Source: Psammoneis japonica (Eukaryota). From it: 64,000 bases of DNA. Position 1 is the first letter of the stretch; every line of letters starts with the position of its first letter. The stretch covers positions 696,289-760,288 of the forward strand of contig QPGO01000014.1 in NCBI GenBank assembly GCA_008632985.1, read 5' to 3'. The translations under genes and the position numbers were made by a program. Shown here in pieces: positions 46,435 through 50,659 of the stretch. Under the pieces are notes generated by a model. That model made no database searches. It was not told where the DNA came from and saw only the letters and a list, made by a program, of their open reading frames with translations.

Positions 46435-47088
46435 CTAGTCACTCTCATCTTCACTGCTGCTGCTGTCACTCAGATTCATGGTTGTTGCAAGCACTGGCTG
46501 TGGCGGCCCCTTTCGAGATATGCTTGCCCGTCGGGCTCGTGTCATCTGTGAATCAGTGCGATCGAGTTCATGTTTGTGGTGGGCAAGATCGCGGCGTTTA
46601 GGATCCATAGTTTGCTCTTCTTCATCTTTTGCCTTTACAATCTTAGAATCCTTTTCAATTTGCGCTGCTTCTTTCTCAATTTGATCTTCTCTTTGTCGTT
46701 TTTTCGATGCTGTTTGTTCTTCCTTTTCTCGGAGGCTTTGTTTCGTCGCCCGCTCCAGCTGCAACGCACCCAACGCACCCCCGCGTAGTTGATGGGGAAG
46801 TGGGTTTGGCGTTGCGAATCCAACAACCGGTAAGTTGGGATTCCATCCTGCAGGTGCCGATGTACGTCCCGATAATGCTCTTGCCACCGCCAAAACTTGC
46901 GTGGCCTCGTTGGTGTTCGCAGGAATGGGCCGAAAACGCCCTCCACGTCGGGATAAGTTGTCTTTCTCGCTCTGGCTCAATAACGGTTCCGATTTCTCTA
47001 AGGCATTTGTCAAGGATCTCTCCAAATCAACCAACGCTTCAACTTTAATCAACATCGAGAGTGACTCTTGCTGTTGTTCCGTTGCCAT
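46435..47088 (-). CDS. MED4: Mediator subunit 4-like protein
   Basis: TSAPAGWNPNLPVVGFATPNPLPHQLRGGAL resembles the Med4 P.GW.P..P.P....R.G.L motif; acidic/Ser C-terminus. Confidence 0.6.
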   Translation of the reverse strand: MATEQQQESLSMLIKVEALVDLERSLTNALEKSEPLLSQSEKDNLSRRGGRFRPIPANTNEATQVLAVARALSGRTSAPAGWNPNLPVVGFATPNPLPHQLRGGALGALQLERATKQSLREKEEQTASKKRQREDQIEKEAAQIEKDSKIVKAKDEEEQTMDPKRRDLAHHKHELDRTDSQMTRARRASISRKGPPQPVLATTMNLSDSSSSEDESD

Positions 47089-47209
47089 CGTGACGTGATC
47101 TATCTTCGCGATGTTATTGCGGTGTGCCGCGTCTTTTTGTGAAAAAACCTGAAAACCACAGGTAGGCTTTGCGCTCTACCAGAACGGACAGAGGACAGAC
47201 ACAGTCGTA

Positions 47210-50200
47210 CCCTGATTATCATAGCATAGAAAATCTGTGGCACAGATTTGGGGTTCAGATTTCTTACAGATTTTCAAGGGGTCCGCAGAAACAGTTACAG
47301 ATTTTCAAAAAGCACAGATTTGTGCCACTAAAACTACAATGCAGCTGAAACTAAAATAAAAAAACTACAGAATTAACCCTCCTCGTCGAAAAAACTACAG
47401 AATTAACCCTCCTCGTCGTCCTCCACGTCACTTCCATCAAAATCCTCCGACTCCTTGTATGCAGTCACCGCGTCTTCGCCCGCCGCATTGCCAATTAAGC
47501 GGACTAGTTTTTCTCTGTACTCTGTTGCTGTTACCGCTTCAACGATGGCTGTGCACGTCGGGTCGGGCTCATCCGTTGGATCCTTGTAGCCAGCAACCAA
47601 GAAGGACTTGTAAACAAGTCCCTCTGGCACCTTCTCCCACGCTTCCACTGTCCACTGTGCAATGAGTTGCCTCGATGGAGCAATCGGATTCCCAGCGGCG
47701 TTAAGGGGGGCTTCCAGCATATACAAGTCATACAGATCCCGATAGAATGCCTTCCATATTTTGTTGATCAAAATGTCAAGAGGCTGTGCTTTGGGCGTGA
47801 TTCCTCCCGCCATTATCAAGAAGTGGAGCTTGCGGATAAGAGCAGTCCTGTCTTTGACGCATTGCTTTGAATGCCCTTTGAAATCGTCGACAAGGACGCC
47901 ACCGGCGTTTCCGTTCTCCTTTCCCTCTGAATCAACGACTCCGATGCCTGGAAGAATAACACGATCCAACACATCATTTGTAAGCTCACCTGAAGAGTTG
48001 GCAGTCTTTGACACTGTCATCACAATCTTGTCGTCGGAGGGATACTCATTGCCGTTGCTGTCTTTCGTGCGCTCGGTTATCTCATACATGATGGTGTTTC
48101 TTCCATATGGCGGACTCACAGGCGTGCCCTTCCAAATCACATACGGCCGCAACTTGTTGTTCTTCTTTGAGAAAGTGATGCTTAATTGTACAGTGAATCG
48201 CTCCTTCTCCTTTCCTCCGGTTCGAATGTTGCGCCTTCCAGACCCCTTCTTGCCCCAGGTATACTCCCCCACTGGCTCTCGCCACGTTGGAACATGATCG
48301 GTGTTGCAGAATGCCATGGGAGGGACAGCAACATATTCACCGGGAACGCCGTCAATCCTATGAGGGTGCATAATGCTGTTGCATCTTGCATTGATATCCT
48401 TCACCTTCTCTTCCCAACCATTGGGGAGCTTCTGCCCAGCTCCCGATTTCCGAGTATAGGACAAGTTGCACCGCCTCTTCAATCCATAGTAGAACCAAGT
48501 TTTCAACTGCTTCATTCGGTTCTGCCCTGGTCGGATGAACGAGGGACTGAGCTTCATCACCTCCCTGAAAATTATCAAACGGGTTATCCTACATCCCGTA
48601 CTGCTCAACTCGGCAAGCCTTTTCTCAAGCTTAGACTCCATTGCCTTCAAGACGTTTCCAACCTTGTTGCCCCGTTTCTCCTTGGCGTGGACAGTAGTAG
48701 ATACAAGGTACGCTCTTCGTTCGCTCGGAGAGAGAGCCTCTAATTTTACGCCGTGAAGCAACAATCCCTCCTTTCCTTTCTTGTATGTATCTGAAACCAA
48801 TTCGTATGTCTTCTTGTATATCTTATCTTTGCAAGATCCGCTCCATGATGTGTAGAAGTTATTTCGGATACGATGGGCAAGGTCATTAACTTTAGAGCCA
48901 CTCGAGATTGCCTCATATACAGCAATGCGCCACTCGTTGGTTTGTTGCTTTCCTTTTCTGTTGTATAGCCCGTCCTTCTCGGTGGCTTTTTGAAGAGGAG
49001 TCTTGGATTGCTTGTCCTCCAAATTTTGAGATCGCTTCTTGTAACGTTGTTTGAGCGTTTCTTCTTCTTGAGCCGCCTCAATTTTGAAATGTGTGCGGCT
49101 CCTCCAAAGGTTGATTGCACGGTCACACTTCATGTCACATGCAATCCTATGTGACCAAAGTGAGGATACACAAGCAGTATTAGCATCATACATAGAAAAA
49201 ACATCCAAGCAGTACCGCAGTGGTACTTACCGAGCCTCCGCATTAGCAAGAGTAGCAACAGCCCCAGCCATTTCAGCCTCCCATTCATTGTTCATTTCCT
49301 GAAACTTCTCTTTGTCCCCTCCACGATCAGGGTGTGATGCTGCTAGCCTTTTTCGGTTCTGTCTTTCGGCCTCTTTAGCAAGGTGCGCCATATCGGTGTC
49401 ACTGGTGGCACGACTACCGCCAAGGACGCGGTAGTATCCAAGGATGTCCTCAAGATTATCGCTCTTGATGCCACACTCGTCAAGAGTTGCTCCTTCAAAT
49501 ATCTCGAGAGCTGGGGATTCTTTCCACCTTTCCTTCTCGAGATCCGTTGCCATCTCCAAAAGTTCAGCTCCGCCTTGACGACCCGACCGCCAGTCTCCGT
49601 GTTGTGTAATAGTAAGATGCTTGGATTTAGAAGCATCACAGGAGATGCTAGCTGCCCCTCTTTTTCTTGAGGTATGAACTGCTTCTACCACTGTGTCACT
49701 ACTGCCGGTACCGCACTCGTCGTCATCGTCGTCATACAAATTTATGACACTTCCTCCTTGTTCCTTCTGGCTTGAGTTGGTATAGTCTGACGGCCTTGAC
49801 TTGTTGCTTGGCGGCATCGAAGAACGGGTGGCTTTGTGAGCGACCTTTTCCTTCCTCTTCTTGCGGGGAATAGTCCTGAAGAAAGACTGCATGGTCCATT
49901 TACCATTGTTACCACCCGAGTAATTTGCCTTTCTCTTCGCCTTTGTTTCACTACTACTAGCATCAGTACTGTCATCTGTAGCTTTGGCGTTCGAACTGAA
50001 GCTGTCATGGATGGGCAAGGGGGCGGTTTTCGTCTCGTCAAACTCATCTTTGCACAGCGTTTTGAACGTGGCAAGAAATACTCTGTACTTGATCGGTTTG
50101 TATGGCGGAACACAAACCTTACAAAGAAGGTTCTCCCATTGTGCTATGGTGATGAGCTTAAGTTCCTCCACACAGTCAACACCCTGTAATTCAAGCCATC

Positions 50201-50549
50201 GGTCGATTTCCTTTGTGCAAGAAAGGTTCTTATCGCAGAACCACTTTCTTACGGCGGGTACCGCCCACACTGGCTTCGAGGGGGCTTCATCCGAGGCCGT
50301 ATTCTCCTTAGATGCCATCGTTGCTGCAAAGAAATGATGTGCCGGAATGAGTGTGTCTCTTTCCACTCCTCACTTTGGCGCGGTCAACGTACATCCTACG
50401 TGCATTTTTAGTACAGAGGGGGGAAGGACAGACGGGGTCCAGATTCCAGATTTTCGGTTCGAAAAACTTACAGATTTTATTCGGCCCCTAAAATAAACTT
50501 ACAGATTATATTTTTCGGCACAGACTTTCTACCGGTATGATAATCAGGG
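47210..50549 (-). mobile_element. Apparently intact pogo/Tc1-mariner superfamily DNA transposon (3340 bp)
   Basis: TIRs CCCTGATTATCATA (47210) / TATGATAATCAGGG (to 50549), extending imperfectly to about 30 bp; TA target duplication at 47208-9 and 50550-1; repeated ACAGATTT subterminal motifs. Confidence 0.93.
47403..50318 (-). CDS. Spliced DDE_1 (pogo-type) transposase, about 943 aa, with N-terminal SAM-like and J domains; intron 49147-49230
   Basis: Catalytic motifs NTDHVP, LVDDFKGH, QPLD; KERFTVQL; a GTAAGT...TAG intron joins the 379-aa and 601-aa ORFs in frame; YYRVLG...HPDRGG. Confidence 0.85.
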
Positions 50550-50659
50550 TAGACTACTTACTGGATGGAATAAATTCATACGATCGTCCGTCAGTCAGCC
50601 GGCGGGACCGGTTGAGGCAGCGGGACCGGTTGAGCCCGCCGGCAGCTGGCGCTGGTGAG

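Follow-up and report, generated by a model that had tools for sequence, protein, structure and literature searches.

Why would a cut-and-paste transposase carry a J domain, the module by which chaperone partners dock on Hsp70? The question is raised by a transposon in a 64,000-nucleotide stretch of the Psammoneis japonica assembly GCA_008632985.1 (contig QPGO01000014.1, positions 696,289–760,288; hereafter the window, whose numbering we use throughout). The element occupies positions 47210–50549 (3,340 bp), carries its gene on the minus strand and has the ends TA/CCCTGATTATCATA ... TATGATAATCAGGG/TA, the slashes marking its borders. With moderate confidence, we favour the reading that the gene encodes a spliced 943-aa pogo transposase that loads host Hsp70 onto itself through a J domain, and that the element belongs to a mobile family. 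From the N- to the C-terminus, the protein would comprise a SAM-like domain, a disordered linker of ~135 aa, a WRxGR/DPA motif, the J domain with its HPD tripeptide, a helix-turn-helix (HTH) region, and a DD36D catalytic core. The exon-1 protein is referred to as P0001, the exon-2 protein as P0002, and the read-through translation, with the stop written as X, as P0003. Coordinates of all features are listed in Table 1.

The case for the J domain is made by a family-profile match and by the conservation of the HPD (residues 329–331), not by a fold match. An exhaustive HMMER search of 1.84 billion representative proteins finds 16 relatives of P0001 at E ≤ 0.001. The profile of a 16-sequence family alignment that includes the window's protein (A1) matches 52 sequences of the PDB at E ≤ 1, essentially all of them J-domain proteins; the best matches are E. 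coli DnaJ (1bqz, E = 1.7e-6) and human HSP40 (E = 3.7e-6). The alignment with DnaJ spans the YY..LG of helix I, the HPD, and the R..YD of helix IV. Pfam DnaJ (cut-off 27.8 bits) is found at E ≤ 0.1 in 9 of the 12 relatives scanned, eight of which score 14–25.5 bits; the ninth, P0037, scores 28.8 bits, and its match to P0001 has an E value of 3.5e-5 in the 1.8-billion-protein library. One relative is annotated by its source as 'curved DNA-binding protein CbpA'. The same architecture, which the sequence-only reading had proposed to look for elsewhere, is found across diverged relatives, the J segment being present in 7 of the 8 long transposase relatives examined.

The HPD is present in every family sequence that covers the region (12 of 12). 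A thirteenth row, P0027, is placed over the HPD region by the aligner; it is an unrelated tail and is not counted. In the N-terminal half, no more than five columns are invariant in at least 10 sequences; these include P330 and D331. In addition, basic residues are retained in helix II ahead of the HPD (RQNRKR in the window; KRRRDK and SRRRRE in relatives).

The predicted structure is only supportive of a J fold. When AlphaFold is given a 24-sequence alignment (A2), residues ~290–355 are modelled with a predicted local distance difference test score (pLDDT) of 89–96, and the HPD is positioned in the loop between helices 307–327 (21 residues) and 336–361. The single-sequence model has a mean pLDDT of 41.6. 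In a Foldseek search of the PDB, ranks 1–10 are all J domains, with a best E value of only 0.49; neither the PDB nor BFVD yields anything at E ≤ 0.001.

Several observations weigh against our reading, and some of them would fit a J-like segment that descends from a J domain, no longer engages Hsp70 and persists as a structural relic, either a helical spacer or a dimerisation hairpin. The sequence is divergent: P0001 alone has no Pfam DnaJ match at E ≤ 1, and its best phmmer match in the PDB, the J domain of SV40 small t (2pf4_E), has an E value of only 0.94. The J region is found in only 11 of the 12 scanned relatives, just one of which (P0037) passes the Pfam threshold. A single insertion makes helix II longer by 7 residues than that of canonical J domains, and the helix-IV motif is ACD in the window instead of the YD of the relatives. 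In one comparison, hairpins of helices from many unrelated proteins reach scores no lower than those of J domains. However, the HPD is invariant at overall identities of 21–41%, at which most other columns vary, and helix II keeps its basic residues before the HPD. We consider a relic unlikely. The sequence comparisons speak for a genuine, though divergent, J domain. The sequence-only reading, which had recognised it from its pattern, is borne out by the family profile, by P0037 and by the HPD, with the reservation that the window's protein alone misses the Pfam model. Two of the observations it named as able to overturn it were checked and did not do so: a J-domain profile match was found, and the HPD is conserved among related elements.

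The J domain is encoded across a predicted intron. Two minus-strand stop-to-stop frames, 49227–50369 (380 aa) and 47403–49226 (607 aa), are joined into one 943-codon frame when exon 1 (50318..49231, 1088 nt) is linked to exon 2 (49146..47403, 1744 nt). The segment between them (49230..49147, 84 nt, minus strand; GTAAGTACCA...CACATAG) has canonical boundaries, with a GTAAGT donor, and its removal would keep the frame; the predicted junction reads ...LANAEAR/IACDMKCD, with the arginine codon split CG/G. The two open reading frames (ORFs), the GT-AG segment, the joined frame, the peptide strings and the coordinates given by the sequence-only reading are all present in the sequence.

Comparison with relatives supports the splice. 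An alignment of P0003 with eight relatives that have no intron places the 28 residues encoded by the intron opposite a gap, and ...NAEAR/IACDMKCD of the window aligns with ...SGRLLYDMKCD and ...VSRYQYDEDCD of the intronless proteins. Exon-1-like ORFs on other contigs (P0023, P0024, and P0031) end at the same codon, with ...REER, ...TAER, and ...REER, respectively. P0004, the closest transposase relative, starts in non-conserved, intron-like sequence and can be aligned with the family from ...THRIQYDKKCD onwards. Since the ORFs of these relatives break at the junction and the intronless relatives read through it, the intron position appears to be common to the subfamily of the window and absent in more distant ones.

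That splicing of 49147–49230 is predicted from such comparison only counts against our reading and favours a gene with two products. Under this alternative, the intron is retained always or part of the time, and the TAA of the GTAAGT donor ends a 363-aa SAM-like/J protein without the DNA-binding and catalytic parts; the P-element repressor is made by intron retention. The truncated protein would regulate the full-length transposase via the shared SAM-like interface, for example as a dominant-negative form or as a chaperone adaptor. The position of the intron is suggestive, lying exactly at the border of the N-terminal module and the DNA-binding/catalytic half, and bases 2–4 of the intron are an immediate in-frame stop. 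The same break occurs in four relatives, and an in-frame methionine lies five residues into exon 2. However, the eight intronless relatives encode one continuous protein, making the fusion the conserved product, and helix IV of the J domain is encoded in exon 2. Moreover, GTAAGT is the commonest donor, and its TAA may be incidental. We give two products little weight, and take the spliced fusion as the more probable product of the gene.

The C-terminal half of the fusion is a transposase. P0002 matches Pfam DDE_1 (PF03184) with 23.8 bits (cut-off 22). The catalytic triad consists of D646 (NTDH), D783 (VDDF), and D820 (QPLD), and 36 residues separate D783 from D820 (DD36D), in agreement with the DDD core of about 36 residues between its second and third aspartates proposed earlier. 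The three aspartates and the surrounding motifs are invariant in an 11-sequence alignment (A3). The spacer is longer than DD36D in an intronless subfamily (P0007, P0009, P0010, and P0012). No Pfam HTH family matches P0002 at E ≤ 1. HTH_Tnp_Tc5 is found at the aligned position in 4 of the 12 scanned relatives, with scores of 15.2–20.9 bits, below the cut-off of 22.2.

The ends of the element are those of a pogo transposon. The terminal inverted repeats (TIRs) are perfect over 14 bp and are flanked on both sides by a TA target-site duplication, which, like short TIRs, is a feature of the pogo superfamily. In accordance, the repeat finder reports 16-nt arms that include the TA (47208–47223 and 50536–50551) and are 100% complementary. 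The 16-mer of the element ends has two sites in 64 kb, namely the two termini, where 100 shuffles give an expectation of 0.00; the window holds one copy of the element. The termini carry CCCTGATTAYCATA. Of the 8 copies of the octamer AAATCTGT in the window, counted on both strands, 6 fall within the two 150-bp ends of the element. These subterminal motifs are likely candidates for transposase-binding sites. The subterminal 12-mers are TTACAGATTTTC, present twice on the left (47264–47306), and TTCCAGATTTTC and TTACAGATTTTA on the right (50444–50512); at both ends they are on one strand, that is, in direct orientation, unlike the inverted terminal 14 bp.

DDE_1, DD36D, the short TIRs and the TA duplications support the earlier call of a pogo-like transposase within intact TIRs, and the repeats are unique in the window. 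By these sequence features, the element is a structurally intact cut-and-paste transposon of the pogo superfamily (IS630-Tc1-mariner group). Its type is probably the stramenopile pogo 'Mover' (DD36D), judged by description and not by phylogeny. According to the accessible text of the survey that describes them (Gao et al. 2020, PMC7386202), Mover elements are all DD36D, have a DNA-binding domain undetectable by hmmscan, and occur only in stramenopiles, one red alga, and one rhizarian. The window's element shares with them the TA duplication, the short TIRs, DDE_1, DD36D, and the absence of a DNA-binding domain detectable by hmmscan. Its 3.3 kb and 943 aa fall within the ranges stated there for the superfamily (1.2–5.2 kb in total, 300–977 aa for the transposase). 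It differs from Mover in its N-terminal half: the same text, as far as accessible, mentions neither a J domain nor a SAM-like domain ('dnaj' and 'j domain' occur 0 times each). The survey text lists mobile pogo elements with only HTH-type DNA-binding motifs and DDE, and lists KRAB, ZNF, or dimerisation domains for domesticated pogo genes only.

The N-terminal domain is predicted to have a SAM-like fold. In the AlphaFold model computed with A2, residues 12–100 have a pLDDT of ~95 and form five helices (21–29, 36–45, 51–55, 58–68, and 75–89). An all-against-representatives search returns 18 matches, among the 50 listed, that cover this domain. At least 10 of the 18 are titled SAM domains, including SARM1, ASK3, DGK-delta, p73, BICC1, SAMD1, CASKIN2, AIDA-1, Aveugle, and EphA1; most of the others are SAM-containing complexes (liprin, EphA2/SHIP2, EphA5/SAMD5, and TIR-1). 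Against our reading stands the result that no Pfam SAM family (SAM_1, SAM_2, or similar) matches the exon-1 protein at E ≤ 1. In the Atlas feature search, SAM families appear at 0.79–0.82 only, below a meaningful level. Since there is no SAM profile match and the Atlas scores are too low, we use the label 'SAM-like fold' and do not assign the domain to the SAM family. The SAM-like N-terminus of the sequence-only reading is thus compatible with the modelled five-helix fold, and no SAM sequence profile matches it.

The SAM-like domain is also present in proteins without a transposase (P0034, P0030, P0035, and P0038). In P0034 it is followed by the Pfam 'Helicase associated' (HA) domain, with 42.5 bits. 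This distribution suggests that the SAM-like domain is a lineage-specific shuffled module in these organisms, for which Pfam has no model. Between the SAM-like and J domains, the linker (residues 112–241, ~135 aa) has a pLDDT below 50, is predicted to be disordered, and contains the basic runs KAKRK and RKKRKEK, which resemble nuclear localization signals. It is followed by the conserved (D/N)WRxGR...DPA..ER..W motif, whose last residue, W265, does not vary among the 12 sequences covering it.

How old is the fusion, and is its family mobile? A word-indexed search with exon 2 scored 8,000 candidates, 19 of which are relatives at E ≤ 0.001; the best is 53% identical. For one of them, P0016, the source gives the name of a diatom, Cyclotella meneghiniana; another, distant one is a bird CENPB-type pogo-derived protein. 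The hosts of the family are probably marine algae and, among these, diatoms. With the N-terminal 363 residues, a word search against proteins of 534–1700 aa finds none at E ≤ 0.01 among 5,644 candidates; a further word search with A1 finds 2 proteins only. The phage collection yields no match. Viral contigs give 2 weak matches, with 33% identity over 75 residues.

The J-bearing proteins are 36–53% identical to the window's protein. In a maximum-likelihood tree of 20 rows (exon 2 of the window and all 19 relatives, none omitted), they occur in at least five lineages: the clade of the window, P0005, P0017, the P0018 clade, and the P0007/P0009/P0010/P0012 clade. The bird outgroup carries no J label, and the other rows that lack one are fragments or ORFs of exon 2 alone, for which no N-terminus is recorded. 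The backbone of this transposase tree is unresolved, and the J columns of full-length rows were kept in its alignment. Read most simply, these sequences suggest that the common ancestor of the sampled family already had the SAM-like/J module and that its descendants have retained it.

The scan of metagenome contigs finds six loci, two of which were described further. L002 is a 1.2-kb internally deleted derivative, in which only the C-terminal third of the transposase is left. It is flanked by TA and by perfect 25-bp TIRs that start with TACCCTGATTACCATAG, a sequence near-identical to the terminus of the window's element, and its ends hold a AAATCTAT-type repeat similar to AAATCTGT. A deleted derivative with TA and TIRs indicates that the element family has been mobilised. 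L001, which belongs to a more distant subfamily, carries an ORF of 899 aa without an intron; TIRs around it were looked for and not found.

These data bear on a further alternative, in which a host SAM/J protein has captured a transposase and become an immobile, domesticated gene like POGK, POGZ, and CENPB. It could appeal to the occurrence of the SAM-like domain in non-transposase proteins (P0034 with its HA domain; P0030, P0035, and P0038) and to the single copy in the window. Known pogo fusions with extra domains are, moreover, domesticated genes according to the accessible text of the survey (PMC7386202). However, perfect TIRs with TA duplications enclose the gene in full, the termini recur in a deletion derivative at another locus, many diverged copies lie on separate contigs, and the catalytic triad is intact. 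Given the TIRs, the duplications and the deletion derivative, a domesticated gene is unlikely, and we rate this origin as highly improbable.

Two further observations concern the relatives. In the subfamily closest to the window's element, P0004 (residues ~600–750) and the deletion derivative in L002 (880–1270) share a conserved C-terminal extension of ~150 aa past the acidic tail (...GDTVLFYFEWGWERGIVH...VLVRYVIDGDY...), which has no Pfam match at E ≤ 0.1; the window's transposase is without it. P0005 has the J domain and the transposase and begins with the DPA..ER..W motif, so that the SAM-like domain is missing. The ORF P0035, in turn, codes for the SAM-like domain alone. For both P0005 and P0035, the source on record is a Logan contig of 3,675 nt. 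The two ORFs may belong to a single element that is interrupted in the linker by another intron or by a frameshift.

What would the J domain do for an active transposase? J domains bind Hsp70 through the HPD and the basic helix II; the contact triggers ATP hydrolysis, and Hsp70 is thereby loaded onto a client close by. By analogy with the docking known from other J proteins, the transposase probably recruits host Hsp70; the sequence-only reading, too, had offered the Hsp70 and transpososome mechanism as an analogy. Its J domain would dock on Hsp70 through the HPD and the basic helix II and stimulate the ATPase, and Hsp70 would thereby be loaded onto the transposase itself. The likeliest task would be the remodelling of transposase oligomers. 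DDE transposases form very stable protein–DNA complexes. To our knowledge, how eukaryotic cut-and-paste elements release such complexes is poorly understood, and the clear precedent for disassembly by a chaperone is bacterial (MuA and ClpX). Possible clients would be the self-association mediated by the SAM-like domain, which we picture as a self-association or synapsis interface, or a very stable transpososome after integration. Disassembly of the latter would let repair finish and the enzyme turn over.

More tentatively, the J domain and a polymerising SAM-like domain may be hard-wired into a whole transposon family, whose transposition would depend on Hsp70 and be coupled to proteotoxic or heat stress, and in the intron-bearing subfamily a retained intron may give a SAM/J-only regulator. 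Since Hsp70 is titrated by unfolded proteins, the coupling of transposition to such stress could be direct. We regard this wider picture as possible rather than probable.

Table 1 Features of the pogo element and its flanks (window coordinates; a dot is given where no strand applies)
Feature	Coordinates	Strand	Remarks
TA target-site duplication, left	47208..47209	.	
Left TIR CCCTGATTATCATA, 3' end of the element relative to the gene	47210..47223	+	perfect 14 bp; near-identical terminus in metagenome locus L002
Left subterminal region with five AAATCTGT copies, putative transposase-binding sites	47224..47360	.	
Perfect 30-bp tandem duplication with the last four codons and the stop codon	47359..47418	-	repeat finder
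Exon 2: last J-domain helix, HTH-like region, DDD core, acidic tail, stop at 47403-47405	47403..49146	-	
Catalytic core, DDE_1 match (P0002 residues 326-514)	47604..48338	-	D646 48299-48297; D783 47888-47886; D820 47777-47775
HTH-like DNA-binding region, QQTNEWRIAVYEAI... to ...WFYYGLKRRCNLSYTR	48465..48947	-	
J domain, residues ~285-372, intron-interrupted	49120..49466	-	HPD at 49334-49326
Predicted GT-AG intron, 84 nt; bases 2-4 are the in-frame TAA that ends ORF 1	49147..49230	-	
Exon 1: ATG at 50318, SAM-like domain, disordered basic/acidic linker, WRxGR/DPA..W motif, J-domain helices I-III	49231..50318	-	
Conserved (D/N)WRxGR...DPA..ER..W motif, residues 237-265	49524..49610	-	
SAM-like five-helix domain, residues 17-100	50019..50270	-	
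Subterminal region on the right, upstream of the gene, with AAATCTGT-type motifs	50400..50535	.	
Right TIR	50536..50549	-	
TA target-site duplication, right	50550..50551	.	

Some features of the locus lie outside this argument. The 30-bp duplication near the end of the gene consists of two copies of AAAAAACTACAGAATTAACCCTCCTCGTCG on the plus strand, with the result that a second ...DEEG-stop is encoded in the 3' untranslated region (UTR). About 45 bp beyond the right target-site duplication is an 18-bp tandem repeat, AGCCGGCGGGACCGGTTG / AGGCAGCGGGACCGGTTG (50597–50632). On the other side, a minus-strand ORF (46438–47091; ATG at 47088) matches Pfam Med4 (Mediator subunit 4) with 27.9 bits (cut-off 26.9). 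The left end of the element lies ~120 bp upstream of the ATG of this ORF, and the insertion is therefore in the likely promoter or 5' UTR of that gene.

Besides Mover, four known systems resemble the predicted protein in part. In the large and small T antigens of polyomaviruses, the J domain likewise lies N-terminal to the DNA-binding part, in a DNA-manipulating protein of a selfish element, and acts together with Hsc70 (PMC8567380, in its accessible text). HPDRGGDKEKF of the window resembles HPDKGGDEEKM of the T antigen. Residues 323–347 of P0001 (KKCKEFHPDKGGDEEKMKKMN) align with SV40 small t (KRLAASHPDRGGDKEKFQEMN), and this alignment is not significant (E = 0.94). Common descent with the T antigen, which the HPDRGGD likeness might invite, was rejected, the match reaching only that E value.

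DnaJ/Hsp40 proteins (PF00226) have in common with the transposase the HPD loop between the antiparallel helices II and III, the basic helix II, and the R..(Y)D of helix IV. They differ in that helix II of the transposase is longer by the 7 residues noted above and that the transposase has no G/F, zinc-finger, or client-binding domains; its client is presumably itself, in cis. CENPB, POGK (KRAB), and POGZ (ZNF) also combine a pogo transposase with extra N- or C-terminal domains. As far as the accessible survey text goes (PMC7386202), they are immobile host genes without TIRs and with other added domains, whereas the fusion of the window lies inside an intact element. A functional parallel that we propose is MuA/ClpX, in which an ATP-dependent chaperone is required for taking apart a stable DDE-transposase assembly (PMC5415555, accessible portion). 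That system is bacterial, its chaperone is the AAA+ protein ClpX and not Hsp70, and the recruitment is by a degron-like tag and not by a J domain.

No J-domain transposase was found in the accessible full-text literature or in the accessible text of the pogo (PMC7386202) and Tc1/mariner (PMC7325037) surveys, a scope outside which Repbase, subscription journals, and supplements lie; given this scope, an earlier description may exist.

The finding has consequences beyond the locus. That a diverged transposon family keeps a J domain in cis points naturally to a requirement for Hsp70, and an HPD point mutant provides a clean genetic handle on the chaperone dependence of eukaryotic cut-and-paste transposition. 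If the dependence on Hsp70 is true, the family would be a eukaryotic counterpart of MuA/ClpX. In addition, two domain types, J and SAM-like, are added to the modules on active, not domesticated, pogo transposases, and the element, being intact and from a diatom-like alga, could be developed into a transposon tool for such organisms.

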